A stretch of 64,000 nt of DNA, from IMG/VR virus record IMGVR_UViG_3300021476_000002, positions 16,578 through 80,577 of that record. One strand, given 5' to 3'. Positions 1 to 49,397 of this stretch are shown here, in pieces. The notes beneath the pieces are model-generated. The model did not search any database, was not told the origin of the DNA, and worked only from the letters and a program-made list of their open reading frames with translations. This stretch comes from a virus. A program made the translations under genes and the position numbers. Every line of letters begins with the position of its first letter. Positions within the stretch are counted from its first letter, which is position 1.

Positions 1-1
1 T

Positions 2-4863: not shown

Positions 4864-4871
4864 GGAGAAGC

Positions 4872-5297: not shown

Positions 5298-5562
5298 ACA
5301 CAATGGCTTGGTTCAATTACGGGGTATATGTTTACGAAGCCCTGGACTTCAGGCTGTGGTGGGGGCACGGATTACCATTCGGGACGGACTACGAGAGATT
5401 AAGAGTTGTACCACCGACCGAACAGGAGAATTTAGAGTCTACCTTCCGCCCGGTAATTACACCATTGTGGCCACCGCGAACGGACTGGCAACATCCGAAT
5501 TGCCTGCGATGGTCTATGCCCCTTTACGAGTGGACTTCTTGATGAGGAGAAGGGCATGGTAG
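5254..5562 (+). CDS. Carboxypeptidase-regulatory-like (Ig/transthyretin-like) domain protein; start uncertain (TTG 5308 possible)
   Basis: VVGARITI...TTDRTGEFRVYLPPGNYTIVATANG matches the CarboxypepD_reg pattern. Confidence 0.6.
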   Translation: MEIELTSLQPSTQTEHNGLVQLRGICLRSPGLQAVVGARITIRDGLREIKSCTTDRTGEFRVYLPPGNYTIVATANGLATSELPAMVYAPLRVDFLMRRRAW

Positions 5563-5789
5563 TATATATTCGCACTATCGTAACATTGAAGGCAATTGTT
5601 GTTTTGACGGCTGTGTTCGAGTCTCTGTGGGCCGTTTTGCACAATTGGGATGCCTCAAGGCTTGCGGTTGTTTGTGGTCAGTTACTCGGAGGCATTGGTG
5701 CCCACGTGTGGCATGATGTTAACATGAGGAATGGAAATGGGAGCGATAGTCCAAACGGTAATGGTGGCGGGGGCGGGGAGACATCGTGA
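5556..5789 (+). CDS. Holin candidate
   Basis: Small protein with two hydrophobic segments, immediately upstream of and overlapping the amidase. Confidence 0.55.
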   Translation: MVVYIRTIVTLKAIVVLTAVFESLWAVLHNWDASRLAVVCGQLLGGIGAHVWHDVNMRNGNGSDSPNGNGGGGGETS

Positions 5790-6358
5790 GCGCAAATCCA
5801 CCTGCGTCGTCTGGTCTTGGAACTGTTTGGATTCCGGCAGCCGAAGGAAATTTCGAGCGCGGCAGAGTAGGGTATAACATTCTGGCAATAGTAAACCATA
5901 TCATGGCCGGGTCTCTTGTAGGAACTGATGCGTGGTTTCAGAATCCAACAAGTAAGGTTTCGGCCCACTTTGGAATTGGTAAAGCGGGTCAAATTCACCA
6001 GTATGTACAACTGACCGACACGGCATATCATGCGGGAGTTGTAAACGGTGCTACGGCGAAAATAATTGGTGAAAACCCCGGAGTTAATCCAAACTATTTT
6101 TGCATAGGCATCGAGCACGAAGGTCAAAGCGGCGATGTATTGACAGAGGAACAATACCAAAGTAGCATATTTGTACACAGGATGCTGATTGTGAAATTCG
6201 GGATTCCGGCGGATTGGGACCACATCATAGCCCATAGTACGATCAATAGCCTTCATTCTGGTTGTCCGGGCATCGGGTTCCCGTGGGCGCGGCTCATTAA
6301 CGACCTAGACGACTTTATAAACGATCAAGCCAAGGTGGGAGGAGCAATTCTGCCATGA
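5786..6358 (+). CDS. Endolysin, N-acetylmuramoyl-L-alanine amidase (Amidase_2)
   Basis: IVNHIMAG...VSAHFGIG...IHQYV...AYHAG...IGIEHEG...IIAHS...CPG: Zn-binding His/His/Cys pattern. Confidence 0.92.
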   Translation: MSANPPASSGLGTVWIPAAEGNFERGRVGYNILAIVNHIMAGSLVGTDAWFQNPTSKVSAHFGIGKAGQIHQYVQLTDTAYHAGVVNGATAKIIGENPGVNPNYFCIGIEHEGQSGDVLTEEQYQSSIFVHRMLIVKFGIPADWDHIIAHSTINSLHSGCPGIGFPWARLINDLDDFINDQAKVGGAILP

Positions 6359-7134
6359 CACCTAAGATACGAGGGTTTTTCAGCGCCGTCGCTCCAAACA
6401 TCCAACAAGTCCTCGTTGGGTCATTGGTTGTGATGTTGGCATTTATCGGTTGGCAGAACGTTCAGATTCGGAATCTTACACTTGAATTGCGTAATGCCTT
6501 GGTGGCGAATCAGATTCTCGAAAAGGCTCAGCACGGAGGCGGTACGGTCACAACTGTGGTCCCAGGCACAGGGGAGAGGATACCAGTAGTGGTGTCGCCC
6601 CAGGGTCCGAACGGGCAGGTTGTGGTTACGGCCCCCTCCGCGCCGAGATGCAAGACCGACGAAGAGTGCAAACGTGTCTACGGGGCCGCGCCGCAGCACA
6701 TTCACACGGTAGCCGACATTCCGCCAGGAACAATCGTGGCGGTTTGCTTAGACGCGGCAGGACACAAAGGGGCGTGTCCTGAAGGTAAAGAGGCCAACCT
6801 TCCTCTAAGCAAATCTCTCCACTTCACGATTGACCATGTATTGACGGAGCGTGGAGTCTTCACAACGGTTCAGGCCCCAGGAAGCGCGGCAGAGGTTACG
6901 CAGATCGTAACGACCACGGAGGCCGCGCCGCCGGTCCCAGGGCAGATTCCGTCCTACCACATAGGGGTTGGCGCTACTGTGATGGGCGTTGGGTTCAATT
7001 TTATGGCCGTGGCAGGCCCGGAGTACCAGGGTCTTGCCATGGGAGGTATCTACAGGGTCACGGCGGGCTACGGCTGTGATGTTCATGGTTGTGGGTACGG
7101 CGGGGCTATAAACTGGACCCTGCCGTTATTCTAA
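6355..7134 (+). CDS. Spanin-like lysis accessory protein
   Basis: Follows the endolysin; N-terminal TM helix, then a coiled-coil stretch, then C-terminal amphipathic beta strands ending in Phe. Confidence 0.5.
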   Translation: MTPKIRGFFSAVAPNIQQVLVGSLVVMLAFIGWQNVQIRNLTLELRNALVANQILEKAQHGGGTVTTVVPGTGERIPVVVSPQGPNGQVVVTAPSAPRCKTDEECKRVYGAAPQHIHTVADIPPGTIVAVCLDAAGHKGACPEGKEANLPLSKSLHFTIDHVLTERGVFTTVQAPGSAAEVTQIVTTTEAAPPVPGQIPSYHIGVGATVMGVGFNFMAVAGPEYQGLAMGGIYRVTAGYGCDVHGCGYGGAINWTLPLF

Positions 7135-7136
7135 AA

Positions 7137-7319
7137 ATGCGAGACGGCTACTTTGAGGTAGAGCAGACGGACGAGGAGCGTGCAGAGGACTTGATAGCAA
7201 CGGTTGAGTTCGAGGCACTCAAGGCTGACATTGCTGAGGCTCTCGCGGGTGGACAATTAGCGTTTCTTGGTAAGATGTGGTCTCATATCCTGTCCGAAGG
7301 CAGGCGACGAGAAGTATAA
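7137..7319 (+). CDS. Hypothetical protein
   Basis: ATG directly after the previous stop; protein-like composition. Confidence 0.45.
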   Translation: MRDGYFEVEQTDEERAEDLIATVEFEALKADIAEALAGGQLAFLGKMWSHILSEGRRREV

Positions 7320-7323
7320 TCAA

Positions 7324-7343
7324 GGCGTCCCGAAAGGGATGCC
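7324..7343 (+). terminator. 8-bp GAAA-tetraloop hairpin (terminator or processing site)
   Basis: GGCGTCCC-GAAA-GGGATGCC, intergenic, after the lysis cassette. Confidence 0.45.
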
Positions 7344-7351
7344 GAGGAGGG

Positions 7352-7516
7352 ATGATCGAAGCGTTGATGCGGTGCGACGGATGTGGACGTAGATTCCGCG
7401 AACTGAGAAGTCGGTCGGACGGAGATTTCTGCCCTAATTGTTGGGAGCGAGGAGACTTGGTGATTGAGGATGAAGAGCAGCAGATTGAAGAGGAGCCTTC
7501 GGAAGCACGTAAGTAA
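7352..7516 (+). CDS. Small zinc-ribbon protein
   Basis: GAGGAGG RBS; CxxC...CxxC; acidic tail. Confidence 0.55.
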   Translation: MIEALMRCDGCGRRFRELRSRSDGDFCPNCWERGDLVIEDEEQQIEEEPSEARK

Positions 7517-8198
7517 ACAAAAGTTTCAATGCGTTGTTTGCGAGTCACAGTTTGAGCGGTGGATAAAGGACGATCAGATTCCAGACCCATGTGTCTGCGA
7601 TTCTCTGTGTAGGTTACGCTATAACCGTAAGAAAGCCCATGAACGATACGAGGAACTGAGCGCACGGCGGTTCTATAAGTTTCCCAAGCCTGGAAAGAAC
7701 CCCGAGACAAGGTTATGGCGTTGTAGGGTCTGTAAGGCGGATATCCCCGCCAAGAGCAGGCGCACGTCGTTTTGCTCTGAAGGGTGTTCAAAGAGGTACT
7801 GGTTCTGTACATCTTCTGCGGCGCAGCGTGCAGCGGTCTTTGAGCGCGACCATGGGGTGTGTACTTATTGTGGCACCGACACAGTAGCGATCAAGGAACG
7901 TTTGGAGTCTATGCCGGGGTACAGAAAATACAATTGGGATATTGGTAGCACAGAGGCAGAACACGCCGAGTATGAGGCCGAGTTAGAGAAATTGGGATTG
8001 AAGGGTAGGATAATCGGCGCGGCGGGCGGTCATTTGTGGGAAGCACATCACAAAACTGCGGTTGCGGAAGGAGGTGGAGGAGAAATCACGGTGGATGATC
8101 TTGCTACTGCGTGCTGGAAATGCCACCCGAAACACACCAGCGAGACAATCCGCAGGCTCAGAAAAACCAAACGCCTATCCCAAACATACGTTCGATAG
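7464..8198 (+). CDS. HNH endonuclease with zinc-finger N-terminus
   Basis: RDHGVCTYCG...WEAHHKTAVAEGGG...LATACWKCHPKHT HNH motif. Confidence 0.85.
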   Translation: MRMKSSRLKRSLRKHVSKQKFQCVVCESQFERWIKDDQIPDPCVCDSLCRLRYNRKKAHERYEELSARRFYKFPKPGKNPETRLWRCRVCKADIPAKSRRTSFCSEGCSKRYWFCTSSAAQRAAVFERDHGVCTYCGTDTVAIKERLESMPGYRKYNWDIGSTEAEHAEYEAELEKLGLKGRIIGAAGGHLWEAHHKTAVAEGGGGEITVDDLATACWKCHPKHTSETIRRLRKTKRLSQTYVR

Positions 8199-8240
8199 TA
8201 GCCTCTTGACACCGCAGACAGTTAGTGCTACATTTGTGGT
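8181..8240 (+). promoter_or_regulatory. Sigma70-type promoter with SOS-like box and operator
   Basis: CAAAC-ATAC-GTTCG 8181-94; TTGACA 8206-11, 17 bp, TACATT; GCTACA-TT-TGTGGT 8227-40. Confidence 0.7.
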
Positions 8241-8255
8241 GGAGGTGGAAAGCAA

Positions 8256-8513
8256 ATGACGAAGGTGGAACTGGCAAAGACACTCCGAGAGGCAATCCGA
8301 CAGAACGACTATCACAACCGCAGAACCGAGGAAGAGAAAGCGCAGGACATCGCCCGGCTTGGTCACCCTGACGGGCGCAAGAGATACCATCTTGATAAGG
8401 GAGTACGAATCTTCATGAGCGAAGACGACGCCAGGACTCTCCTGGCGGAACTGGAAGCACACCCAGGAACCCTGCGCGGCTACACATCCGATACACCAGA
8501 CGGGAGGGAATAG
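8256..8513 (+). CDS. Hypothetical early protein
   Basis: GGAGGT RBS directly after the promoter. Confidence 0.65.
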   Translation: MTKVELAKTLREAIRQNDYHNRRTEEEKAQDIARLGHPDGRKRYHLDKGVRIFMSEDDARTLLAELEAHPGTLRGYTSDTPDGRE

Positions 8514-8514
8514 C

Positions 8515-8718
8515 ATGGGCGTGGCAGACGTGAGAATCGAGAATCACGGAAGCCTCTTCCTGGTCCGGCCCCAGAACTCAACGGCTCGTGAATGGATTGA
8601 CGACAATGTGAGCGTAGATGGCCCCTGGCAATGGTTTGGCGGGGCGCTGGCGGTTGAGGGCCGGTACGTCGTTGATCTCGTCAACGGAATGCGGCAGGAT
8701 GGTCTGGTGGTGCGGTAA
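8515..8718 (+). CDS. Conserved small phage hypothetical protein
   Basis: GGGAGG RBS; tightly packed operon. Confidence 0.65.
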   Translation: MGVADVRIENHGSLFLVRPQNSTAREWIDDNVSVDGPWQWFGGALAVEGRYVVDLVNGMRQDGLVVR

Positions 8719-8913
8719 ATGAAAGTCTACGTCGCGGTCTGCTCACGATGCGAGTACGCGGAATCATTCGATCACTTCTCCCAGGCCGAGAGGGCAGCAG
8801 ATGAGCACAACGCTGCGGCCCCGCACGAGACGACGATCTGGGAGGGTTACGACGGTCCACACGGTATCGAAATCAGGAAGGAGATTCTTACTCCCGAGAG
8901 GAGGGACGGATAA
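8719..8913 (+). CDS. Hypothetical protein (CxxC/His)
   Basis: Abuts its neighbours; CSRC...H motif. Confidence 0.6.
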   Translation: MKVYVAVCSRCEYAESFDHFSQAERAADEHNAAAPHETTIWEGYDGPHGIEIRKEILTPERRDG

Positions 8914-9539
8914 TGAGCACTAAGAGCGCAACCGCCCCGGAGATTCTAGCGCGGAGCAATCATGGATACATCTCGGCCCCAGACACGGCGATTCTGGTTC
9001 GTGCGGCTCTGAAGCGGGCGTTCCCGAATGTGAAATTCCGGGTCCGCACTAGCCAGTACAGCATGGGGGCCAGCATCCATGTTGGATGGACGGACGGCCC
9101 GACATCCAAGCAGGTTCAGGCCGTGACCGACCAGTTTGTCGGCGGTCGGTTCGACGGGATGATTGATCTGGCGTACAGCGTGGAGCACTATCTGACCGAC
9201 GACGGGAAGGCGGTTCTCGCGCACAGTCCCGGAACAGTCGGGTCTCGCGGTGTGGACCCAGGATACGAGAACCCTGACTTCAAGGGCATCCTGCCTACGG
9301 TTCACTTCGGCGCGGACCACATCTTCGCCGACCGGACGTACTCGAACGAGGGGCAATTGAAGGCTGATATCGAGGCTTACCTGGAGAAGAACCTGTCGCT
9401 GCCCCCGTGGGAGCCGAACGCAACATATGCGTGGCCGCAGAATTACGTCTGGCAGATCATGAGCAGCATGGACTTCCTCGCCGGGGACACGATTGAGAAG
9501 GCGTTTCGGCGAGAGGTTCTGAGGGAGGAGCAGAAGTGA
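8913..9539 (+). CDS. LPD29 (large polyvalent protein-associated domain 29) family protein
   Basis: VRAALKRAFPNVKFRVRTSQYSMGASIHVGWTDGPT...FDGMIDL signature. Confidence 0.75.
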   Translation: MSTKSATAPEILARSNHGYISAPDTAILVRAALKRAFPNVKFRVRTSQYSMGASIHVGWTDGPTSKQVQAVTDQFVGGRFDGMIDLAYSVEHYLTDDGKAVLAHSPGTVGSRGVDPGYENPDFKGILPTVHFGADHIFADRTYSNEGQLKADIEAYLEKNLSLPPWEPNATYAWPQNYVWQIMSSMDFLAGDTIEKAFRREVLREEQK

Positions 9540-9727
9540 GCCAGCGGCGCGTTCTGTCTATCCCGGAATTCGTCAGGAAACTCCGTGCATTGGCGGAAGA
9601 CGCCGAACACGGAAGGAGCCTAACTCTCCCTAATGGAGCGTTGGTGTCGGCCCTCTTGGGAGGGATTGCCAACGATCTTGAATTGATGCACGAGAAAAGA
9701 CGGCTTCCATCTGGGGAGTGGACGTGA
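9536..9727 (+). CDS. Hypothetical protein
   Basis: GTGA overlap, GGAGGAG RBS. Confidence 0.55.
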   Translation: MSQRRVLSIPEFVRKLRALAEDAEHGRSLTLPNGALVSALLGGIANDLELMHEKRRLPSGEWT

Positions 9728-9781
9728 AGAACAAGCGTTCGGGTATACCCCTTGACAGGGCTACTACGGATGTGGTACGAT
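9728..9781 (+). promoter_or_regulatory. Sigma70-type promoter with SOS box and operator
   Basis: AGAAC-AAGC-GTTCG 9728-41; TTGACA 9752-57, 18 bp, TACGAT; ACTACG-GA-TGTGGT 9763-76. Confidence 0.7.
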
Positions 9782-9809
9782 TAAGGCGGGGAAAGAGAGG
9801 AGGAACCAA

Positions 9810-10406
9810 ATGGCGGTCGTGAGGCACGACGGAACCCGCGAGTACGAAGGGGCAGTCCTGACAACCCGAGAGCGGAATTATCATGACGACAGCGATTTTT
9901 ACGCTGTGGTGTGGAACGGCAAGGCTCTGCGCGAGGTAGAGTACGACACTACACGGTTTGGCGGTGGCGGAACGGCGGAAGTGGATGCCACCGAGGAGAC
10001 CAAAGCAGCGGCGCGGGAATGGCTATACCTGTGGGCGCTGAAGTGGGTTCGGCGAGACGACTTCCTGGAGGTTCGGAGGTTTGCAAAGGGTAAGCGGGTT
10101 CGGTTCGCCGGAGACTTCAAGGGCCGCAAGCAGGGGTTTGTGGCCAACGGCACAGAGGGGACAATCATCTGGACCGGCCCGTCGTACCGGTATCGTGGGT
10201 ATCGGAACAACGTTGATTCGGTCGCGGGTGTGAAACTGGACGGCGGTGATCGTGTGGTCTTCGTGGACATGCTGAAACTGGAGATCATAGGGACCCGCCA
10301 ACTCCGCAAGAAGCCTGAGCAGGTTCGGGAGATGGCGAAGCGGTTGTCCAATGCGGAGATGTGGCACGCGCCGTTCTCCTACGGGCATGGATTGGTGGTT
10401 GTGTGA
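9810..10406 (+). CDS. Hypothetical early protein (possible SH3/KOW-like C-terminus)
   Basis: GAGGAGG RBS; GKRVRF...GTEGTIIW...AGVKLD pattern. Confidence 0.65.
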   Translation: MAVVRHDGTREYEGAVLTTRERNYHDDSDFYAVVWNGKALREVEYDTTRFGGGGTAEVDATEETKAAAREWLYLWALKWVRRDDFLEVRRFAKGKRVRFAGDFKGRKQGFVANGTEGTIIWTGPSYRYRGYRNNVDSVAGVKLDGGDRVVFVDMLKLEIIGTRQLRKKPEQVREMAKRLSNAEMWHAPFSYGHGLVVV

Positions 10407-10609
10407 TGAGCCGGTTCTCTGGCGCTACGGAATTCGTAAAGGTAGCCCTTATCCGTGACGATGCACCGATTGGTCAGACTGCGCCGATGCACTTGGAATG
10501 CCTGTGCGGCGCGGAGGTTCCTGTTCACGGTTCCGAAAACACGTGCGAAAAGTGTGGACGGGTCTATAGCGGCAGCGGATGGATTCTGGGCACACAGGAG
10601 CGTGAGTGA
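10406..10609 (+). CDS. Small zinc-ribbon protein
   Basis: TGATG coupling; CLCG...CEKCG. Confidence 0.55.
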   Translation: MSRFSGATEFVKVALIRDDAPIGQTAPMHLECLCGAEVPVHGSENTCEKCGRVYSGSGWILGTQERE

Positions 10610-10610
10610 G

Positions 10611-10796
10611 ATGGCAACCGCGTTTAAGTCAATAAAGGCTCAGACCTGGAATGAGCGTACCAAGATAGTCAACTTCCTGGTGGCGCGTGGGTACGCGGTA
10701 GAGGTTGTGGAGGGTTATGAATACTACACAATCTTCTACTACGATTCCGGCAAACCTGGAGTTGTTGTTACGCCACCGAACAAGGAAGGAGACTGA
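10611..10796 (+). CDS. Hypothetical protein
   Basis: RBS plus ATG; operon packing. Confidence 0.5.
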   Translation: MATAFKSIKAQTWNERTKIVNFLVARGYAVEVVEGYEYYTIFYYDSGKPGVVVTPPNKEGD

Positions 10797-10797
10797 C

Positions 10798-11040
10798 GTG
10801 GCAACGACTAGGAAAATGTCAACTGTTACGATTCGGGCGGACATCACGCTGTCTTACAGCGCGTGGGAGAAGATCGTGCGGCGGGCAGAGTCGGTTGACC
10901 AGTACGTGACAGACTTACTCTCAAGGGCGCGGAAGTTAGAAGTTCACCGGCTGACCGACGCGGAAGAAAAGCACGAAAAGCAGGTTCGAGATGCGTTTCT
11001 GAGAGGCAAAATTCTTGGCAAGACGGCGGCAAGGCGATGA
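10798..11040 (+). CDS. Hypothetical protein
   Basis: AAGGAG RBS plus GTG; operon packing. Confidence 0.5.
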   Translation: MATTRKMSTVTIRADITLSYSAWEKIVRRAESVDQYVTDLLSRARKLEVHRLTDAEEKHEKQVRDAFLRGKILGKTAARR

Positions 11041-11270
11041 ATGGCTACAGCGGAACCTGTCTTTATTGCGGGAAGCCTGTTGAATTTGCGCCGCGCCCAG
11101 GGTCTTCTCAGCCGCATTGGGCGCACGTTGGAGGAACCCTCTATCTTCGGCGGTGTAGGGAATGTGGGTGGGAAGGGCCTGATGAATATGGTTCAACCTG
11201 CCCGCAATGCGATACAAAATCCCTGGTGGACGATCATGCAGCGTCCCCAGACAGGAGGAAACTGAGATGA
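11037..11270 (+). CDS. Zinc-finger protein
   Basis: CLYCG...H; CRECG...CPQCD. Confidence 0.55.
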   Translation: MNGYSGTCLYCGKPVEFAPRPGSSQPHWAHVGGTLYLRRCRECGWEGPDEYGSTCPQCDTKSLVDDHAASPDRRKLR

Positions 11271-11482
11271 GCAAGGCGCTGAGCACGTTGGCTCTGGTGT
11301 CGTTCATGTTCTTCGCGGTGTTCAAGGGCGCAGAGAACCCGGCGGTGGATGGTGGCGTTCTCTACATGGGCATGGGGCCGTTTGCATCGAAGAATAAGTG
11401 TGAAGTCATTGCATCCGTTCTTGCCAGCATGGAATCCATGTCCGAGTTCCAGTATGTCGGCTGCAAGAGCGTAAACTTTTAG
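11267..11482 (+). CDS. Small membrane-anchored/secreted protein with GPFxSxxxC...C motif
   Basis: AGGAGG RBS; N-terminal hydrophobic helix. Confidence 0.55.
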   Translation: MSKALSTLALVSFMFFAVFKGAENPAVDGGVLYMGMGPFASKNKCEVIASVLASMESMSEFQYVGCKSVNF

Positions 11483-11557
11483 CAGCCATGGGAGCGCATA
11501 GGGCCGGTGTTTATCCGGCCCCTTGCGGTCCTAAAGGGACCAGGGAGGTAAAAGAAC

Positions 11558-11836
11558 ATGGAACCTATTAGCGGGCTAGTGATCTTCGTTCTCGTGGTGG
11601 CTTTGTACTTCTTGCCGAGCATCGTGGCGGCATATCGTGGCGTTATGATCTCGCGCAGGAATGCCATTCAGGTTATAAACCTGTTCTTTGGGTGGACGTT
11701 AATCGGTTGGCTGATTGCCTTGGTCATGGCATTTGAGGCCAAGACAACGAAAGAGTACGAGCGTCATGAGGCCGCAGAAGAGGCCATGATCGAGATGGCG
11801 CAGGCCATGAAGGCACAGGCGGGCTTGCAGAAGTAG
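11558..11836 (+). CDS. imm: Superinfection immunity protein (T4 Imm family)
   Basis: LYFLPSIVAAYRG...IQVINLFFGWTLIGWLIALVMA signature. Confidence 0.88.
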   Translation: MEPISGLVIFVLVVALYFLPSIVAAYRGVMISRRNAIQVINLFFGWTLIGWLIALVMAFEAKTTKEYERHEAAEEAMIEMAQAMKAQAGLQK

Positions 11837-11853
11837 GCAGGGTGTGATATACT
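11825..11853 (+). promoter_or_regulatory. Sigma70-type promoter
   Basis: TTGCAG-17-TATACT with a TGTG extended -10. Confidence 0.55.
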
Positions 11854-11859
11854 TCAGAG

Positions 11860-12030
11860 CGTCGTCTGGGAGGCCGCTTCTTGTTGGCAGAAGAAGCGGC
11901 ACAACGGGGTTCTGCCATGCTCCGAGTCAATAAAGGCTTCAGGCGACTGATTGTTTGAAGGGTCTGGGGATTCTGTTCACACTGTAATCTGTAATTTTGT
12001 TAACACTAAAAAAACCCAGACCCTTGAACT
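11860..12030 (+). ncRNA. Candidate structured RNA/leader (pseudoknot plus long inverted repeat)
   Basis: GCCGCTTC/GAAGCGGC stem whose loop GGCAGAA can pair with TTCTGCC at 11910-16; 11-bp inverted repeat 11958-68/12015-25. Confidence 0.35.
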
Positions 12031-12090
12031 TATACTATCCATGTGCGCCAAGTTATACGTTTCGTACACACCAGTACCAGGGAGGGCACG

Positions 12091-12711
12091 ATGCGGTATT
12101 TCGCAGCGGCAGTCCTGTTCCTGATGGCGTGGCACGTAAATACAATAGACGGTTTCACAATGGATACAATGCCATCAGGGTTACGTCACGTGGATGTGTT
12201 GGCGACAGGCTACAACGCCAACGATGGACAAGAACCGTGTCACACTGTTAGCGGTAAGTGGGTGTGTGGTGATAGGGTGTACGACGGGACGGGTGCCCCA
12301 TACGTTGGGACGATTGCGGTATCCCACGATATGATTCAGTTGATGGGGCACTACGTTTGGGTGAACGGATGGAAGTATGTGGTGCGCGACCTGATGCCGA
12401 ACGCATGGATGGGTCAGGTCTACAGGCACCGCATTGATATCTACTTCGGAACACCGCAGGCCGCAATACGGTGGGGCCAGAAGAAAGTAACGATGTTCAT
12501 TGAGGAAACTCTGTATTCGGGGGCGATGTTTTATGGACAAAATTATCGAGCGGTGGAGGGAACGCCGACTCCAGGAATACCTTGCTTCGATTCGGTCATG
12601 GGACTGGAAGAGCATTCTGTCGGACGCGGAGGCGCAAGGGTCCTGCTTTCTGGGAACTGTGTTCCAACTGGCTCCTTCAGGCAAGTATTGGACCCAATGG
12701 GCACACAGTAA
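12091..12711 (+). CDS. 3D (Asp-Asp-Asp) domain cell-wall-binding/lytic transglycosylase-like protein with signal peptide
   Basis: ATGY...HTVSG...GTIAV...VVRD...RIDIYF...AIRWGQKKV; N-terminal signal sequence. Confidence 0.75.
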   Translation: MRYFAAAVLFLMAWHVNTIDGFTMDTMPSGLRHVDVLATGYNANDGQEPCHTVSGKWVCGDRVYDGTGAPYVGTIAVSHDMIQLMGHYVWVNGWKYVVRDLMPNAWMGQVYRHRIDIYFGTPQAAIRWGQKKVTMFIEETLYSGAMFYGQNYRAVEGTPTPGIPCFDSVMGLEEHSVGRGGARVLLSGNCVPTGSFRQVLDPMGTQ

Positions 12712-12862
12712 TGTCAACCGAGTAGAAGCCGAGAAGGATTCTCTTTACTATGAGGCCCTTGAGTTGGTAGCGGAGGAGCACGGACTTTCCATAACGTCAG
12801 GCGAGGGCGACCCGTGCGACGTATTTGCCTTTCTGTACGATGTCACGCCGGGGCCGGAGTAA
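12533..12862 (+). CDS. Conserved phage hypothetical protein
   Basis: Coherent globular sequence (LAPSGKYW...EALE...GEGDPCDVF) overlapping the tail of the 3D ORF. Confidence 0.55.
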   Translation: MDKIIERWRERRLQEYLASIRSWDWKSILSDAEAQGSCFLGTVFQLAPSGKYWTQWAHSNVNRVEAEKDSLYYEALELVAEEHGLSITSGEGDPCDVFAFLYDVTPGPE

Positions 12863-12865
12863 GAG

Positions 12866-13258
12866 ATGTCGGACACACAGGACACAATCAACGGGAGCGC
12901 CGTCGTGCCGGGCGAGATCATTCCCGAAAAAAAGACGAAACGGCGACCCCCAAGCCGTCCGCAGCGGTGGGCAGAGGCAGTAACGGAGGCGCGGAAGGCG
13001 TTTGATGATATTCATGAGGTACGTGAGGCTCTCTCGCAGGCGTTGGGAGAGTTGCGGAGTATTCAGGAAGAGTACGAATCGTGGCGCGATAACATGCAGG
13101 GGACGAACCTGGAGAATTCTCCGACTTACGAGAAACTGGAGGAAGTGTGTAACATTGACATTGAGGGCGTGGTGGATTCGTCCGACTTGGACGACATCGA
13201 GAATGTCCTGGGAGAAGCGGAAGGTGCTGATCTTCCGCGTGGATTCGGGAACGACTGA
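12866..13258 (+). CDS. Helical acidic hypothetical protein
   Basis: SRPQRW...LRSIQEEYESWRDN...LEEV, coiled-coil-like. Confidence 0.65.
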   Translation: MSDTQDTINGSAVVPGEIIPEKKTKRRPPSRPQRWAEAVTEARKAFDDIHEVREALSQALGELRSIQEEYESWRDNMQGTNLENSPTYEKLEEVCNIDIEGVVDSSDLDDIENVLGEAEGADLPRGFGND

Positions 13259-13358
13259 GGAGGAATGGCGATGGTGCTGCCATGGTTGCCAGGGTGGGTA
13301 GCGGGTGCGATGTACGGCGCACTCTTCGGCGCATTAAAATCAGCGGGCTTGATCTAAT

Positions 13359-13435
13359 CGGGCGGTAGCGCAGTTTGGTAGCGCACATGCCTTGGGCGCA
13401 TGGGGTCACAGGTTCAAATCCTGTCCGCCCGACCA
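13359..13435 (+). tRNA. tRNA-Pro (anticodon UGG)
   Basis: Full cloverleaf: CGGGCGG/CCGCCCG acceptor, GCGC D-stem, CATGC/GCATG with CT-TGG-GC loop, ACAGG-TTCAAAT-CCTGT, ACCA end. Confidence 0.97.
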
Positions 13436-13545: not shown

Positions 13546-13893
13546 ATGCGATACGTGCTTGGAGTTCTGGGAGCGGCAGTCATTCTGTCGCTGAGCGTGA
13601 TTGGCGGATTTGCCGATAGTCGCGGACAGGCGGTTCCTGCCCCGGCTGCCCAACTGCCGAATTGCAGCACGGTGGCGGTTGGAGTCCCGTGTCAGTACAC
13701 TGGTCCCGTTGTGTTGAACGGTATCCCGGTGGTAACCACCACGAACGCGAATGGCGGGAGCGGCAGCACGGGAAGTACTGGTTCGAGCGGCAGCACGGGT
13801 GGCACCAGCGGCAGCGGTAGCGGTAACGGTGGCAAGGGTGGCCGCGATGGCGACGGCAAGGGCCACGACGGCGACGGCAAGGGCAAGGGATAG
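13546..13893 (+). CDS. Secreted Gly/Ser-rich low-complexity protein
   Basis: GGGAGGT RBS; signal peptide, Cys pair, GS-rich linker, GDGKG repeats. Confidence 0.7.
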   Translation: MRYVLGVLGAAVILSLSVIGGFADSRGQAVPAPAAQLPNCSTVAVGVPCQYTGPVVLNGIPVVTTTNANGGSGSTGSTGSSGSTGGTSGSGSGNGGKGGRDGDGKGHDGDGKGKG

Positions 13894-13916
13894 AGGTTTG
13901 GTCTCCGTAGTGCGTA

Positions 13917-15527: not shown

Positions 15528-16335
15528 AATTGATTTGGGGGGAGTTGGTGTTGTGGCAATGAGGGGGATGAAGGCCGTTCTTACGTTTGGGATGATGGCT
15601 TTTCCGGTGCGTGTTTACGCGGCGACCGAGGAGCATAACATTCCAAAGAAACTGCTTCATGCACCTTGCGGAAACCCCATCAAGGCACCAAGAACATGCC
15701 CCGTCTGTCAAGTAGAGGTATCCTCCTTCGACACGGTATATGGCGTGAAAGTTGGAGATGGATACGTAACACTGACGGAAGACGACCTAGACGCGGGCGA
15801 CGTTGACAAGACCGTGGCTATCGAAGGATTTGCGCCCTTAAGTGTGGTTCCAATCATGCAGAGACAGAAAGTGTACTACCTTGGCCCAGAGCAAGGGGCA
15901 GAGAAGCAGTACGCCCTACTTGCGCGTGTTCTGGCCGAGAAAGGTGTTGTGGGTGTCGGGAAGCGGTACGCGGGTGGCAAGGAGGGTCTGGTCTCAATAG
16001 AGACAGGCCCGAACGGTGTCCTGGTTCTTTGGCACCTGTTCTACTCGGACGAGATGCGTGAGACGGTGGATATCCCACGGTTTCCCGTTGTGCAGTCTGT
16101 TGAAATCTCCGACAAGGAAATGAGCCTTGCGAAGAAACTCTTGGCGGCGTTGCGGCTTGAGCGCCCAATCAAAAAGATCACAGATGAAACAGAGCGACGA
16201 TTGCAGCGTATCATCACAGCGAAGTCGGGTTCAGCCGCAAAGCCAATCGAAGGGCCACGTCCAACGCTGCCAGGAATGGTGGAGTTAGCGGAACAATTGC
16301 AGGCCGCCCTGAAGAATGCGGAGGCACCGATTTGA
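15523..16335 (+). CDS. ku: Ku DNA end-binding protein (NHEJ Ku70/80 homolog)
   Basis: LTFGMMAFPVRVYAATE...CPVC..EV...G....YVTLTEDDL...YYLGP...YALLARVL...LWHLFYSDEMR matches bacterial/phage Ku. Confidence 0.9.
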   Translation: MAIDLGGVGVVAMRGMKAVLTFGMMAFPVRVYAATEEHNIPKKLLHAPCGNPIKAPRTCPVCQVEVSSFDTVYGVKVGDGYVTLTEDDLDAGDVDKTVAIEGFAPLSVVPIMQRQKVYYLGPEQGAEKQYALLARVLAEKGVVGVGKRYAGGKEGLVSIETGPNGVLVLWHLFYSDEMRETVDIPRFPVVQSVEISDKEMSLAKKLLAALRLERPIKKITDETERRLQRIITAKSGSAAKPIEGPRPTLPGMVELAEQLQAALKNAEAPI

Positions 16336-31038: not shown

Positions 31039-33262
31039 GTGAAACTGAAGGGTCTGACCGAGAAGGCCGCAGCCGAAGAGGAAGCCTACATGGTTGAGGC
31101 CGGTAGGCAGCGGGCGCAAGCGGTTGCTAATAAACTTCGGGCGATGCCTGATTCTCCAGGAGCGCGGTCAATCGGGATGTATCTAGCGAAGAGTATGAGC
31201 GCGGGACGTGCGCTGCGGCGCGGCAGGAGATGCCGGTGATTCGGACTCATAGACACCCTAAGAACCGAATTTTCTTGGACCGGTGTGAGCGAATCGCAAA
31301 GGCTCACCCTGATTGGGATGTCGCAAAGGTTATGGCCCGCGCTACCCTAGAAGGTTTAGTGGTCAACCAGAGCGAATGTATCTGCAATAATCCTGAGTCC
31401 TGGGGTTATAAGTGTCCGGTTCATCTAGTAGTTTGCGGAGCGGAGGTTTCAAAGCGATGAGCGAGACTTGGTATTGTGACTGCTGCGAACTACCGTTTTG
31501 TTCTCAGGAAGATCGCAACGGACATATGGAGTACCTATCGGCTGTACAGAACAATGCTGATAGGTGGGTGCCTGCGTGTGGCGGGCGCGAGAGGCCCTTT
31601 ACGGCGCGAAACGGTCTTCGTCTTCTGTACTGCTATAACCCGTCGCAGAATCGTCACGCCTACATCAATGTAGACACGGACATGGAAATTGACGGCTATG
31701 CCCTAGTGGGAGCCGGGTTATGAACCGAAAGGGTGACAAACGGCGAGTTGGAATAGTGTATGGTTCACCTGACTTTAACATCATTGAGGAGTTTGATGGT
31801 AAGAAATGGGTCCGGTTATCTCCAGAAGACTCTGCTATAATCATCAAACATTGGAATAAGTCGCCTATAATCACTAAGCAGCGTTGGAATGAGTCGCTGC
31901 GAAGAATGGATACCAGATGAAGCGGATTTGGTTAGGATTGTTGATTACGGTGGTTTTGTTAACCCTGGCGTTTTTTGGACCGGCGCGTCAGGTAGTTGAC
32001 GATCCAATGAAGGATATGTGTTTCGTTAAGGGTCATGTAGTGTTGTGCAAAGACCAGGAAACTAGCGGGTCGTTTCATTCGGATGGTGGTTTATGGAAGA
32101 ACTGAAAACAAGACCCGTTAAGGGTAAGATTCGGTGTCACAAGCGGAGTTATGAGGGTCGCTTTTCGGCTCAATGTATTCACGATGCTACTGTTGAGATT
32201 GCGTATAATACACGCTGGCCCGCTAGTAAGGTGGGAGTAGAATGGAGGCCGGTGTGTAAGGCTCATCTTCATGGCGAGAAGATGAGCAGAAAGAATACTG
32301 AAGAGAGGAATAGAAAGTGGAAGGAGCATGATGCGCGTACCAAGGCTGCCGAGAGGGCCGCTAAAAAGTGGTCTAAGATTCTCGGGGTTAGTGTTAAGGT
32401 GGATTACGGAATTAACGGGGTAGCGTTGCTTGATAGTTTTGTGTTGAGTGGGGAGGCTCTTGAGGAATTGCATAACGTCATAATCTATAGGGAGTGATGG
32501 TTGTGGCAACTGCCAAGGAAATGCGTAAGCAGATGGAAAAAGAGATGGAGGAAGTTGGCACCAGCAAGACGGGCCGAGTTGCCGGTAAAGAGCGCCAGAA
32601 GAGCGATGCTGTTCTGTTGATTTACGGTCCAACGAACAAGAAGAAAATGTTCAAAACCCGGAAGGCGATGGAGCAGTTTCTTCTTACTCTACCTTACTGA
32701 AAAGGGGGTTTCTTGAATGGACGGTCATACGGTAATGTGGTTTATGTTGGTGCTGGCTTTTATTCTGTCCATTGGGGCTTTTCAGGGGGAGGGAAGGTCA
32801 TGAGCGACATCATTCAGGCTATGGCTGTGATTTTTGCAATCGTTGTGGTGGTTTCAGCCATTGGGGACCCGAGGGTTATGAAGGAATGCCAACCCAAAAA
32901 TCAACTGAAGCGGGGGGATGAAGATGGGGACTAACTTTTACGTACAGTCGGAGTCGTTTCAGGCGCACATCGGAAAGTCTAGCGCGGGGTGGCGTTTTAC
33001 GTTTCGTGCATACCCCGAAAAGAAGAACATTCTTGGCGTGATTCGTTCAGCGCGTGATTGGCGTGAGGCTTTTCGGTTCCTTCGGGAAATTCGGGAACCC
33101 TTTCAGATTGTGGATGAGTACGATCATCCACATTCTGAATCTGATTTCTGGTTCATGGTGGCTGTGAAACAGCGGAGTAAGATGCCCGATGAAAAGCCAA
33201 CGGAAGATAGCGAATACGAAGACGCCGATGGGTTTATTATGCAGGGGAGGGATTTTTCATGA
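31039..33262 (+). other. Run of about 10 small coupled hypothetical CDSs (31039-31239, 31230-31460, 31457-31723, 31720-31920, 31917-32105, 32093-32497, 32494-32700, ~32800-32934, 32918-33262)
   Basis: Overlapping start/stop codons and RBSs; no functional family recognised. Confidence 0.6.
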
Positions 33263-42510: not shown

Positions 42511-43934
42511 TCCTAACGATCTCTCGGGTTGTTCAGATGAATGGGAGGCCGGGTGTCAGTCGTCTCTGGTTGATAAGTTTCAGCGTACATATTGTGGAGG
42601 GGTGACGGATTACCGTGAAATGGACCCCCGAAGACACGTTCATTTTCGTGTGGGTTTTTATCGTTCTGTGGGCCATGCAGTTTATGACAGGAGGTTCCAT
42701 TTTTTCTAGGTCGCGGCGAGGATTGGTGTATCGCAAGAAGTCTAGCAACGAATGCGAGACATGCTTGACTAAATTGACTGAGCAGGAAATAAAAAAGGGG
42801 CCGTGTCACGACGGACTTGTTTATTGCTCCAAATGTAAGCGTGAGAGTAAGTGTGGATGCGGGAAGGAGAAAGAGATATGATGTTTGTGGTGATTGTTTT
42901 GGGCGTTGCCGTTGTGGTGCTGGCGGCTACGTTGCATACCATTAAGGCGTCTAAGGGCAATCGTCTTTATTGGCGGTTCATGGGTTACAAAGCGATTGAC
43001 GAAGCGGTGAGCAGGGCTTTTGCGACTTACGGCGAAAGGAATATCATGCAGTTGCGTGTTGTGATGTGGATGAAAGTGGAGAAGGGCGTTGTTGAAGAGA
43101 CGATCTTTAGTACGGTTGGTAGGCCATGACTACGACTGACGAAAAGAAATTGGGGTATCTTGGTTTGACAAGGTACGAAATGGATGTGCTCATCAAGGCT
43201 CTTGGTGTGGCTATTGAGCACAAGGAAGAACTTGACGACCTTATGGCTACGCAGGGTATACTTGTAGCGTTGACGAATGGAAGTCAAACGCTTAAACGGG
43301 GGAGGGATTGAGATGTTTCAGTTTTTGGGGAAGGCTGTGATTTTTCTTGGTCTGGTTGCGATTGCCATTTTGGCAGGGATTTTGGTGGTCAGCGCAGGGT
43401 ACTATTTGGTTGAGGAGCCTCACCGTGAAGCCGTGCAGTACAGCGCAGGGCAGGCCACGGCAGAGAAGGCTCAGTACGAGAAGTGCGAGAAGGCAAAGGC
43501 GGGAATGCGGAAGTACATGCAGTTGGCGGTTGACGCGGCTAGTAACAAGGATGGATTCGATTCTGAAGTCGTAACTATGTACTTAAATTTCTCTCTCGCT
43601 GAGGGTCAGGTTGCGCTGGTTGAATGCCAGAGGTAAACCCCGTAGGGGTTTCTATCCATTACCGAATTACCAAACCCCATAAGCGGGGGTGTAATGCTGT
43701 TCGTTATGTGGCGGAAGGAAAATGGCCTCATCCGTGGTTCTATAGGTTTTATAAGGGGAATGACTTTAAGCATGGGTTGAGTAGTGGAGAAAATTGCTTT
43801 GAGCGATGCGATAAGAACGGTCGTAGGATGCACAAGCATGGAAATTACTGGTTGGCGGTGCGGTGTAACTGTACCGACTGCCCGGCTGAAATGTTGATTT
43901 GCTTGGACGATCTTTTGAAACTGGTGCCACCAGC

Positions 43935-44330
43935 ATGAGAGTTCTCGTGACCGGTGGCCGTAATTGGACGGACGAGACGGCCATTTACGATGCGCTGAAG
44001 GAGTTAGTGGAGGTTGCCCAAAGGTTCGGTGGGGAAAAAATCGTTGTTGTTCATGGCGGTGCGCGTGGCGCGGACATGGGTGCTGGAATCGCTGCTATAC
44101 GGCTTGGTCTTGATACTGAAACACATCCTATTATTGATGAGGATTGGGAGCAAAAAGGTCTTGCGGCGGGGCCGATTAGAAACCGAAAGATGTTAGATAC
44201 TCTTGACCCAAAGCGTGATGTAGTTATAGCGTTTCCTACGAAGGAATCCAAGGGTACGTGGGATACCGTTGAGGAAGCGCGTCGTCGAAAGATTCATGTT
44301 ATTATTCACGCTGAGCCGGGGTCCAAATGA
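43935..44330 (+). CDS. SLOG-family (DUF2493/YspA-like) nucleotide-binding protein
   Basis: MRVLVTGGRNW...VVHGGARGAD...AAGPIRNRKML...VIAFP...GTWDT. Confidence 0.88.
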   Translation: MRVLVTGGRNWTDETAIYDALKELVEVAQRFGGEKIVVVHGGARGADMGAGIAAIRLGLDTETHPIIDEDWEQKGLAAGPIRNRKMLDTLDPKRDVVIAFPTKESKGTWDTVEEARRRKIHVIIHAEPGSK

Positions 44331-44542
44331 AATCGGCAGCCATAATCGTTCCATTCAACAGCAACGTGACGTATGATGTCACGGCGAAGAATCCGTTTCC
44401 TGGTGTTCTAACAATTGAAGCACCAACGGAAGCCGCCCTCCTAGATGAGTTGTCATTTTTAATGACACAGATTTCAATTACGTTTGAGGACATTTCCAAA
44501 AATAGACTAAGAAAGTATCAGGATGGAGGAGCGGGATGCTAA
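44327..44542 (+). CDS. Hypothetical protein
   Basis: ATGA coupling. Confidence 0.45.
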   Translation: MKSAAIIVPFNSNVTYDVTAKNPFPGVLTIEAPTEAALLDELSFLMTQISITFEDISKNRLRKYQDGGAGC

Positions 44543-44928
44543 ACAGAATCATACTGATAGGTAGGCTAACGCGGGACCCGGAACTGCGGTACGTTCCTAG
44601 CGGTGCGCCCGTTGTGAATTTCACGCTGGCCGTAGATCGTCCGTTCAAGAATGCCAACGGCGAAAAGGATGTGGATTTTATTGACGTGCAGGCGTGGCGA
44701 AAATTGGCTGAGTTGGTCAGTCAGTATACATACAAGGGCATGATGGTGGCTGTTGAGGGTAGGCTCCAGATTAGGTCTTGGGAGGCACAGGACGGTCAGA
44801 AGCGGAAGTCCACAGAGGTTGTGGCCGATGGCGTCAGGTTCCTTGGTGGTAAAAAGAAAGGTGACGCTGAACCCGAGTCTGAGCCGGTAGAGGCCGAGAA
44901 GCCTCTTGACGAAGATGTCCCATTTTGA
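44536..44928 (+). CDS. ssb: Single-stranded DNA-binding protein
   Basis: MLNRIILIGRLTRDPELRY...VEGRLQIRSW...TEVVAD; C-terminal EDVPF. Confidence 0.98.
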   Translation: MLNRIILIGRLTRDPELRYVPSGAPVVNFTLAVDRPFKNANGEKDVDFIDVQAWRKLAELVSQYTYKGMMVAVEGRLQIRSWEAQDGQKRKSTEVVADGVRFLGGKKKGDAEPESEPVEAEKPLDEDVPF

Positions 44929-44945
44929 TATACTACACAAGTAGT
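44906..44945 (+). promoter_or_regulatory. Sigma70-type promoter inside the ssb 3' end, with degenerate operator
   Basis: TTGACG-17-TATACT; ACTACA-CA-AGTAGT 44932-45. Confidence 0.7.
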
Positions 44946-45170
44946 CCCGTAAAAATACGGGCATGAAGCCTGTTCTTCCGAGCGCGGAAGGGCCGTCGTG
45001 AGCCGACGATACGGCACTTGCCCGTAGGAATTATAAATCCGGGATAGCGTGACGGCGCGAGACGGCAGGCGGGAACTAAGGTGAGGCAGGGACACTTCCT
45101 CGGCATGTGTCTTTCCTGTCTAATCGGGTAGTCCGAGGTAATCCGAACGCCTAGCCTGCCTTCCCGGAGG
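44940..45170 (+). ncRNA. Candidate ~230-nt two-domain structured ncRNA
   Basis: Domain I closed by ACGGGCA/TGCCCGT with two internal hairpins; domain II closed by CCGGGA/TCCCGG and GGCAGGC/GCCTGCC with a 12-bp internal hairpin. Confidence 0.6.
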
Positions 45171-45199
45171 CATCATATTACAAGGTGGAGGGGAGAAAC

Positions 45200-45523
45200 A
45201 TGAGGTTGGTCGCTGCAATGACTGTGGTTGTGGTTTGTTTTGTGTTCTCGGGTGTTCGCCCGGCGCACGCAGAGTACGCTGATGAGGCGACGTGCGACAT
45301 GGTTAATGGTTTGGGTCAGTCGTCAGGCCATGATGCCCTAGAGGTTCGGACGGCATTCATGGTGCAGGAAGCATTTCTGACGGGTTATGCGTTGGCGTTT
45401 GTTGCGCTGCACCCGTCTCCCACTTCGCTAAACGTTGGTGACATCGCTAAGAGAATCAAGGAAAACTGCGCGGCGAATCCATCCGAGAAGATTTTGGACG
45501 CCGCGAGTGATTCCCAGAACTGA
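45200..45523 (+). CDS. Secreted protein, HdeA/HdeB-like Cys pattern
   Basis: Signal peptide ending AHA; TC...FLTGY...CAANP..KILDAA. Confidence 0.5.
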   Translation: MRLVAAMTVVVVCFVFSGVRPAHAEYADEATCDMVNGLGQSSGHDALEVRTAFMVQEAFLTGYALAFVALHPSPTSLNVGDIAKRIKENCAANPSEKILDAASDSQN

Positions 45524-45725
45524 TGGATGAGCAAAAAGAGAACGCGACAGTTTGGGCTTCTCTCTGGGAAGCGTGGGAAGTCCTTACTGTCGTTGTTTTT
45601 TGTCTTGCGATGATAGTAGCATTGATAGGGCAGTTTAACCCTGACGTGTTCCAGACATATACGACCGCTACGCAGTCGGAAGGATACTGACTTTTCGCTG
45701 CGGAATCATATTTGATGTACAAGAT

Positions 45726-46796
45726 ATGACTCGGAAGGGTACGTTTGACGTACAAGATATAACTCGGGAGGGCGCGATGCCTGAAGAGACAGTTGCAAAC
45801 ATTAGTGATTTTGCCGGGGACGCTCAAATCTCTGAGCAGGGTGAGGTTGGAGAGTCCAAAGAGAATAAGGTTAAGCGGGCGTTGACGGCGGGTGGCCAGA
45901 TTTGTCAATGGTCCGCATACGGGGCCGATGCGTGGATGCCTTGCGCTGACACCAAGGTAACGCTTCCTAATGGTGTATACACGATTGAGTCCACAAGGAA
46001 TGATGGAATTGTGTTCGTGAAGCACGCCCTTGTTGTGGATAACATCATTGAATTTCCTGATTCTCAGAGTGCGAAGGTTGTGGATGAGATCGAGCGGTTC
46101 TGGGACGCGGGTGAGAGGTTCGTCGGTCTTGGATTCGCGCACCGACGTGGATACTTGCTCTATGGTCCTCAAGGTTCTGGAAAAACTTCCCTTGTGATGA
46201 TGGCGATGCACAGGGTTGCAAAGCGTGGCGGCATTGTGTTCTTGATGAACAATGAGCCTGAGTTGTTTACTCGTGGTTTGGAGTTGTTCAGAAGGATTGA
46301 GCCTGTGCGCCCGGCGCTGTGCGTGTTCGAGGATGTAGACGCTATTCTTCGGAGGCATAATACATCTTTGGTGTTGGCTCTGTTGGATGGTGAATCTCGC
46401 ATTGACCACGTACTCAATGTCGCTACGACGAATTATCCTGAGATGCTAGACAAGCGAATTGTGGCGCGGCCACGTCGGTTTGATCGTGTTATCAAAATTG
46501 GAATGCCTCCGTATCATGTAAGGCTCTTGTATCTTCAGAAGAAGGGGTTGGACGATGCTCATGCCGAGAGGTTGTCCAAGAGTACGGAGGGTTTGAGTCT
46601 TGCGGCGTTGGCGGAAATCCTGGTGTCCTCGAAGGCTTTGAATATTACGGAAGAGGAAGCCATTAAGGCCATGAGGGATATGGCCACGGCTGAGCCTTCG
46701 AGTGAGAAGTTTGGTAAGGAGGGCAGGAGGATTGGTATTGGGGGAAGAATACCTGCCTATACTGGAAAAGTAGAAGACCCAGAAGATGATGAGTAA
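45726..46796 (+). CDS. AAA+ ATPase (classic AAA clade)
   Basis: RGYLLYGPQGSGKT; FEDVD Walker B; TTNYPEMLD...RPRRFD second region of homology. Confidence 0.93.
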   Translation: MTRKGTFDVQDITREGAMPEETVANISDFAGDAQISEQGEVGESKENKVKRALTAGGQICQWSAYGADAWMPCADTKVTLPNGVYTIESTRNDGIVFVKHALVVDNIIEFPDSQSAKVVDEIERFWDAGERFVGLGFAHRRGYLLYGPQGSGKTSLVMMAMHRVAKRGGIVFLMNNEPELFTRGLELFRRIEPVRPALCVFEDVDAILRRHNTSLVLALLDGESRIDHVLNVATTNYPEMLDKRIVARPRRFDRVIKIGMPPYHVRLLYLQKKGLDDAHAERLSKSTEGLSLAALAEILVSSKALNITEEEAIKAMRDMATAEPSSEKFGKEGRRIGIGGRIPAYTGKVEDPEDDE

Positions 46797-47948: not shown

Positions 47949-48217
47949 TCGTGTTTGCGAATGCGGGCATTTTGAAATTGAGCATCGCCCTATTTACGGT
48001 TGCTTTGCTATTAGTTTGTTCCATGCTATATGTTGTGGATGCAAGGAATTTCGTGAGAAGCGGCGTAGTAGAACTAACCGCCGACCAGTACGCAGCGATA
48101 ATGCGCGATCAGCCAAGCGGGTCAAGGATATGGCGACTCGGACCTTTTAGGAACCTCGAAGACTGTGAGAGGGCCGCGCAGGCCCTACATACGACGTTGA
48201 AGTGTACAAATTTGTAG
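47914..48217 (+). CDS. Two overlapping small ORFs (47914-48150 Cys/His finger; 47951-48217 with GPF..C motif)
   Basis: CECGH...H...C...CCGC..F in one frame; WRLGPFRNLEDCERA in another. Confidence 0.4.
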
Positions 48218-48274
48218 TCGTGGTACTACAAAACAGTAGTAGTTGTTGACTTTGGTAAAGCGGATTGATATATT
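48211..48274 (+). promoter_or_regulatory. Sigma70-type promoter with upstream inverted repeat
   Basis: TTTGTAGT-N6-ACTACAAA 48211-32; TTGACT-17-TATATT. Confidence 0.65.
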
Positions 48275-48280: not shown

Positions 48281-48408
48281 GTCAGTTATGGCTGAAAGAC
48301 GGGGACGCTGGCTCTAGCGGGCAATAACAGAGCAGGCGTCCCATAAAGATTGGGGCACCGGGGGATGGTAATGCGCCGTGCGCGTTGCCGTCCCCTAAAT
48401 CTTTTTAA
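48281..48408 (+). ncRNA. Structured leader/sRNA ending in a terminator-like hairpin
   Basis: GGGACGC..GCTCT/AGAGC..GCGTCCC hairpin; 16-bp hairpin 48361-95 with three G-U pairs followed by TCTTTTT. Confidence 0.5.
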
Positions 48409-48719: not shown

Positions 48720-49397
48720 ATGGAGGAACAAATGGCCCACCCCCAAGCGAAAAAGTTATCGGCTAAAAAAGAAGCCGTAGCGTTAGAGCGGTACAAGAAA
48801 CACGAGCGACTTGCCATCAAACTTGCCCGCGATATGGCAGCCAAGTCACGCCGTATGGATGAGTTGGAAGACTTGATTCAGGAGGCTAGGATTGGTTTGT
48901 GGACAGCGGCCATTCGGTTCAAGGAATCGGCGGGCGTTAAGTTCTGGACGTATGCAAATTGGTATGTCTCTGGAAGTCTTCAGCATTGGATGAGGGACAA
49001 GGCGTGGGTAGTGAGAAGTCCGAGAATCGGGGCAGATGGTAAGCCGCTACCTTCAGGTAAGCGTTGGGAGTTTCAGCCAACGTCGCTTGAAAATAGCGAT
49101 GGGTTGTCTGAGCAAGTCGTAGACCCGAACTGGAATGATGGATACGAAGAGGTTGAGAATAATATCGCCAAGGCACAGGCGTTGCAAGTGACAGGTTTGA
49201 CCTTGAGGCAGCGTCAGTTTCTTAATGAGGTGCGTATCGCCGAGTTGGAGGGAAAGACTAATTTAAGGGACGTGTTGAAGCGCATGAAGATGAAGGGTGG
49301 CAGCGCGTCCCGGATATGGAAGACAATCGAGCAGGCCATTTCAGATAAGAATAGACTGAATGGAAGCGGAGACCATGGTAACTGTTCAATGCGGTAA
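48720..49397 (+). CDS. Phage RNA polymerase sigma factor (sigma-70 family, SigB/F-like region 2)
   Basis: LAIKLAR...EDLIQEARIGLWTAAIRF...KFWTYA...G.L....RDKAWVVRSPR; degenerate region 4. Confidence 0.9.
   Translation: MEEQMAHPQAKKLSAKKEAVALERYKKHERLAIKLARDMAAKSRRMDELEDLIQEARIGLWTAAIRFKESAGVKFWTYANWYVSGSLQHWMRDKAWVVRSPRIGADGKPLPSGKRWEFQPTSLENSDGLSEQVVDPNWNDGYEEVENNIAKAQALQVTGLTLRQRQFLNEVRIAELEGKTNLRDVLKRMKMKGGSASRIWKTIEQAISDKNRLNGSGDHGNCSMR

Follow-up and report, generated by a model that had tools for sequence, protein, structure and literature searches.

The window analysed here is a stretch of 64,000 nucleotides and corresponds to bases 16578-80577 of a 113,878-bp IMG/VR virus record (IMGVR_UViG_3300021476_000002) of an uncultured phage, for which a completeness of 87% is estimated; positions given below are those of the window. 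The phage sequence is present in one public DNA run only, a cave metagenome which is probably its source, while no RNA run appears among those listed, and the contigs of this run carry the intergenic sequence described here without variants. The genes of the phage lie nearly all on the + strand. A tightly packed block of genes, in which a gene for a YAcAr/SLOG protein (43899-44330) precedes a 71-aa ORF, is closed by the ssb gene (44536-44928, + strand) encoding a protein of 130 aa (Pfam SSB, E=4e-37; PHROG 44, E=4e-53). Behind ssb lies a non-coding gap of 271 bp (44929-45199), followed on the + strand by a gene for an orphan protein of 107 aa whose N-terminus resembles a signal peptide (45200-45523) and a translationally coupled 55-aa ORF for a membrane peptide (45523-45690), and then by an AAA ATPase gene with an annotated ATG at 45726. 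Around this annotated start a tandem 33-bp duplication (45711-45772; 29-nt copies, 90% identical) spans the ATG. A good ribosome-binding site (GGGAGGG) is found behind the second copy alone, together with another ATG at 45778 from which translation of the AAA ATPase may in fact begin. Further downstream, just before TerL, a sigma-70 region-2 protein is encoded (48720-49397), which is the phage's own sigma factor that the original prediction had called upon. Since the SSB resembles those of Bacillales phages, which are its nearest counterparts in cultured phages with 50-53% identity, the host of the phage is probably a Firmicute.

The gap had been described as a stretch of ~270 bp behind a promoter, and it is non-coding on both strands. 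All three + frames of 44929-45199 contain several stops. With the long ORFs of the phage as training set, a codon-usage log-odds score stays negative in each of these frames (~44920-45150), giving no coding signal there, whereas ssb and the 107-aa gene (+0.33) have clearly positive values; the 55-aa gene reaches +0.28. On the minus strand of the gap there are ORFs of 57, 99 and 32 aa, and their scores of -0.37, -0.25 and -0.26, respectively, are like those of spurious ORFs (median -0.24). A 12-aa ORF at 44964 was considered as a hidden gene and rejected, as it has no ribosome-binding site. The gap is the second-longest stretch free of + strand ORFs in the 114-kb record, and its GC content of 0.555 is ordinary among such stretches.

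A promoter of the sigma-70/sigma-A type is located at the very end of ssb (44906-44934, + strand), consisting of TTGACG (44906-44911), a spacer of 17 nt and TATACT (44929-44934), and thus present exactly as the original prediction had it. It matches the consensus at 10 of 12 positions and has in addition an extended -10 TG (44926-44927), which is supplied by the stop codon of ssb, while the -35 hexamer is built from the codons for Leu-Asp-Glu in the tail of the SSB (PLDEDVPF). No other site between 43500 and 46500 reaches 10 of 12 positions, and the class of promoter pattern to which it belongs is enriched in the window, with 10 sites observed and 2.4 expected. Transcription is predicted to start near 44940-44942. 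Right over the -10 hexamer and the +1 position lies a palindromic operator of the form CTACA-N2-AGTAG (44931-44946, both strands), which fits CTACANNNGTRGTA with one mismatch on either strand. The predicted operator over +1 therefore exists as well, and it is a member of an enriched family of promoter-associated operators.

This operator motif has 14 matches at 11 sites in the window, compared with 0.83 expected, and none of 100 shuffled sequences reaches this number. Throughout the genome, a TTGAC is located at most 30 nt upstream of 10 of the 11 operator sites. Since the motif is enriched and is nearly always found at TTGAC promoters, the promoter at 44906 is credible. The approximately 11 operators follow the form CTACA-N2-TGTRG then TA and are located at 8228, 9764, 13477, 15515, 30912 (minus strand), 30995, 37110, 37136, 44933, 54312 and 60211 (minus strand). 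With its hexamers at 17-nt spacing, an extended -10 and an adjoining shared operator, the site at 44906 fits among the promoters of this regulon, and promoter and operator together look real and repressor-controlled. There are, however, two peculiarities. At nearly all other sites the operator sits inside the promoter spacer and contributes the beginning of the -10 hexamer, whereas at 44931 it lies on the -10 and +1 positions; and the distance from operator to gene start, which is mostly 28-69 nt elsewhere (54312 being an apparent exception), is 267 nt here. At the promoter at 37099 a second operator is found immediately downstream of the -10 hexamer. The promoter at 48246 has the extended -10 TTGATATAYT in common with that at 44906; upstream of it are two operator-like palindromes with wider half-site spacing (~48204-48219 and 48223-48242), and downstream of it is a terminator hairpin of 17 bp (48360-48396).

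No terminator-like site is found between 44935 and 45376. The closing stem of what was proposed as the second RNA domain is followed by 17 nt of mixed A/U and then by a strong Shine-Dalgarno sequence and start codon in the arrangement GGTGGAGGGGAG-N3-ATG (45185-45202, + strand), with the ATG of the 107-aa gene at 45200 and thus within about 30 nt of the stem. A discrete RNA of ~230 nt, as it had been proposed, would need a 3' end behind domain II, but neither a terminator nor any other such end is present there and the Shine-Dalgarno sequence and the gene follow directly. Since there is no terminator before the ATG, the RNA must run into the 107-aa gene unless it is processed, and the region thus reads as an mRNA leader rather than as a discrete RNA. 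The start, the end and any processing of this transcript are putative. In longer context the Shine-Dalgarno sequence is predicted to be ~50% paired with 45112-45121. Its sequestration by a pyrimidine tract was considered and rejected, as 28% of the shuffled leaders also reach the -17.8 kcal/mol of this duplex.

Behind the 107-aa gene, within the 55-aa ORF and close to its start, a long hairpin ending in six T (45537-45601, + strand; T-run at 45596-45601) is predicted with z=-5.07, a stability that none of 200 shuffled sequences attains, and in a scan of 75-nt windows it ranks with the most stable local folds of the genome. This hairpin is possibly a partial terminator or attenuator that overlaps coding sequence. 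If it terminates transcription, promoter, leader, 107-aa gene and hairpin could form a self-contained unit. In the 55-aa peptide, the T-run corresponds to Val-Val-Phe-Cys within the membrane segment. As for the 107-aa protein, a search among 5.8 billion proteins returned only the protein itself. Three remote matches are repeat proteins of 476-722 aa, each of which is matched in six separate stretches, and weak leads point to HdeA-, YmgD- or Rap1a-like proteins (feature score 0.86; TM-score 0.45-0.58).

The main claim of the original prediction was that the promoter drives a heavily paired RNA of two domains. Every one of the helices that it listed exists. The degree of pairing, however, is not exceptional. 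The 265-nt region folds on the + strand with -97.0 kcal/mol, compared with a mean of -90.4 kcal/mol for shuffled sequences (z=-1.37), and 16 of 200 shuffles are as stable; the minus strand, with -87.6 kcal/mol, z=-1.46 and 17 of 200 shuffles as stable, matches it in these statistics, and therefore nothing singles out the + strand as selected. Similarly, domain II (45038-45168, + strand) reaches -54.4 kcal/mol with z=-1.24, and 24 of 200 shuffles are as stable. Its predicted minimum free energy (MFE) fold is multi-branched with three inner hairpins, accounts for 0.6% of the ensemble and is poorly defined. Within the gap, domain I (44955-45027, 73 nt) alone exceeds shuffled sequence in folding stability, with -35.3 kcal/mol, z=-3.76 and no shuffle out of 200 as stable, although its boundaries were chosen after looking. 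It is predicted to form a three-way junction (44956-45026, + strand) with an outer stem of 8 bp and two inner hairpins, representing 46% of the ensemble.

How unusual such a module is was judged from a genome scan, in which 75-nt windows, moved along the + strand 5 nt at a time, were folded and their energies adjusted for GC content. The best window of domain I ranks 130 of 22,761, and 49 separate loci, many of them within genes, are at least as extreme. This amounts to about one locus per 2.3 kb, and therefore a stretch of 270 nt would hold one by chance in about one of eight cases. Other 75-nt windows of the genome that fold far better than expected from GC content, at 11459, 4874-4904, 13879-13899, 16319-16334 and 33064-33109 as well as at the genome positions that equal 83534-83544 in window numbering, have regression z values from -4.6 to -6.6 and all exceed anything in the gap. 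Moreover, the fold of the gap depends on its context. A hairpin close to the 5' end (44946-44961, + strand; 6 bp, 4-nt loop, -7.2 kcal/mol) excludes the outer stem of domain I, so that either 44946-51 pairs with 44956-61 or 44956-63 pairs with 45019-26. The best predicted fold shifts repeatedly as the transcript grows, and when the sequence is extended by the ribosome-binding site and 35 coding nt, the MFE fold rearranges and both domains dissolve. Apart from the modest 5' module, the two-domain, heavily paired RNA is thus not distinguishable from what base composition gives.

Known RNA families were searched at two levels of stringency. With Rfam 15 at the gathering score, the whole window gives two tRNAs only, neither of which lies inside the gap, and ARAGORN finds no tRNA or tmRNA in the gap. 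With permissive filters and E <= 10, the region 44800-45300 gives three meaningless matches (UCA1, SorX and snoR35, E=0.2-5), while the models for 6S (RF00013), ykkC, ydaO, T-box, ribozymes and Y-RNA are silent. The comparison with RF00013 had been suggested together with the idea that domain II recalls 6S RNA in having a closing stem, a bubble and a terminal stem, and that the phage might use it as a decoy sequestering the host RNA polymerase. Instead of a rod with a central bubble, domain II is predicted to be multi-branched, with a stability no higher than that of shuffled sequences, and as both the covariance model and the architecture failed, the decoy is unsupported.

No homolog of the gap was found in any of the collections searched. 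A blastn search against 50,697 phage records gave nothing, the phage genome contains no second copy, and none of the 20 loci in IMG/VR whose SSBs are most similar (45-65% identical) shows similarity to it. At most of these loci the spacing after ssb is -20 to 61 nt; one of them (L004) has a gap of 278 nt after ssb, which is unstructured (z=-0.23) and without Rfam match. Scans with patterns of domain I, describing either its outer stem or its loops and junctions, gave nothing in viral and metagenome contigs and a single chance match, inside a Rhodobacter gene, in genome contigs. The phage itself stands rather alone: its AAA ATPase and its TerL have no relatives in IMG/VR, the best homolog of the AAA ATPase among 5.8 billion proteins is 49% identical, and for TerL the best homolog is 50% identical and the best one in cultured phages 28% identical. 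In the contigs of two distant relatives that were examined (L024 and L025; TerL 47-48% identical) neither the gap sequence nor the operator motif was found. One of these, L024 (an ENA metagenome contig, 1-13363; TerL 47% identical), which is the one that extends upstream, keeps the order DnaB, YAcAr, sigma, small ORF, TerL and dGTP-diphosphohydrolase, but has no ssb, gap, 107-aa or AAA block. Instead, it carries genes for a methyltransferase, which directly follows the YAcAr gene, an endonuclease VII, a peptide deformylase and a trypsin-like protease. Since L024 lacks the ssb-gap-107-aa block, the region can be regarded as a variable module junction.

Taken together, we lean towards the gap being an untranslated mRNA leader of ~255-258 nt that is transcribed from an operator-controlled promoter at the end of ssb. 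A repressor of the phage would bind to the CTACA...GTAG operators and block RNA polymerase by covering the -10 and +1 positions. In the absence of the repressor, an mRNA would be made for the presumably secreted 107-aa protein and the coupled 55-aa membrane peptide, and beyond the hairpin and U-run at 45537-45601 it would probably cover the AAA ATPase as well. The GC-rich leader would fold like any other sequence of similar composition. If the 5' hairpin and the 73-nt three-way junction have a function, this would most plausibly be protection of the 5' end or tuning of translation, and it is unlikely that the 5' module acts as a separate RNA. In favor of the leader we count, besides the promoter with its operator, the non-coding gap, the missing terminator before the ATG, fold statistics that are ordinary outside domain I and the lack of an Rfam match, that the genes downstream look coding, that the fold depends on its context, and that the hairpin with a U-run after the 107-aa gene fits a self-contained mRNA unit. 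Against it we count that a leader of ~255 nt is an outlier asking for a reason, given the 28-69 nt elsewhere, that the gap is the second-largest stretch free of + strand ORFs and that domain I, taken by itself, has a well-defined fold.

The length, unusual for the operator regulon, would also be in line with the leader being a cis-regulatory RNA, such as a switch sensing a ligand, a protein or temperature. Such a switch could operate by the 5' hairpin competing with the outer stem of domain I, or by the pyrimidine tract at 45110-45122 pairing in turn with a purine tract upstream of it and with the Shine-Dalgarno sequence; taking both options jointly, we regard it as rather unlikely. The alternative pairing of 44946-51 with 44956-61 or of 44956-63 with 45019-26 would suit it, as would a Shine-Dalgarno sequence that is about half paired with 45112-45121 in longer context, but 28% of shuffles match the latter duplex, domain I counts among 49 loci of equal stability in the genome, no terminator is available as expression platform, and neither an Rfam aptamer match nor homologs showing conservation were found. 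The 5' hairpin and the competing 73-nt three-way junction, with its two stacked hairpins, might be a cis-acting RNA of an undescribed family from an unsampled phage lineage, either a switch or a put-like element allowing read-through of the hairpin at 45537-45601 into the AAA ATPase gene, which we consider improbable.

Quite unlikely, too, is that the gap acts at the level of DNA or is functionless beyond its promoter, being either a spacer that module shuffling left behind or an array of protein-binding sites. The variable module junction revealed by L024 fits this idea, and so do a near-palindrome of 14 bp (45027-45040) and three copies of CGWKACGGC (45007, 45048 and 45058), although such a 9-mer triple is found in 10% of shuffles and in ~20% of genome segments, there is neither an inflection of the GC skew nor an AT-rich unwinding element beyond 14 bp, and the promoter must transcribe the gap anyway. 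That a discrete stable non-coding RNA, including a 6S-like decoy, is released from the gap by processing appears very improbable to us. The dedicated promoter, the non-coding and GC-rich nature of the stretch, the phage's own sigma factor and the existence of the closing stems CCGGGA/TCCCGG and GGCAGGC/GCCTGCC would all be in line with it. However, a 3' terminator is missing and a ribosome-binding site with its gene lies directly behind, RF00013 and the other families are absent at E <= 10, the multi-branched domain II does not exceed shuffled sequence in stability, and the operator is identical in kind to that of ordinary gene promoters.

If the untranslated leader is the true explanation, the genes are organised as is routine in phages, and what is gained is another promoter placed on the map of a regulon that is controlled by operators in an orphan cave phage. 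Greater importance would attach to the region only if a function as RNA element were established for the 5' module. Compared with known systems, 6S RNA (RF00013) is similar in so far as its size is comparable in order of magnitude, a closing stem joins the 5' and 3' ends of domain II, and a decoy fits a phage with its own sigma factor. It differs in that the gap RNA has no covariance-model match at E <= 10 and no defined 3' end, and in that the interior of domain II is predicted to be a multi-branch loop in a fold no better than chance. A second comparison concerns the put RNAs of HK022, which are promoter-proximal RNAs that modify RNA polymerase in cis. Here the genome has a single such element, and the likeness is speculative: two adjacent hairpins just past the promoter and a terminator-like hairpin further downstream. 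Operator-controlled early promoters of temperate and virulent phages, at which the repressor binds in the spacer or over the -10 and +1 positions, are resembled by the palindromic operator that is common to ~10 promoters and lies here over the -10 and +1 positions. The other operators of this phage, in contrast, occupy the spacer and provide the first part of the -10 hexamer, neither of the two distant relatives examined showed the motif, and the repressor is putative. Finally, long 5' leaders with a stabilising stem-loop close to the 5' end are known from mRNAs of phages and Firmicutes, among them the ermC and aprE leaders and the early-RNA stabiliser of SP82 in Bacillus subtilis. Although the transcription start is only predicted here and the Firmicute host is guessed from SSB similarity, the gap resembles these leaders in having a stable hairpin within ~5 nt of the predicted start, a long untranslated stretch and a strong Shine-Dalgarno sequence.
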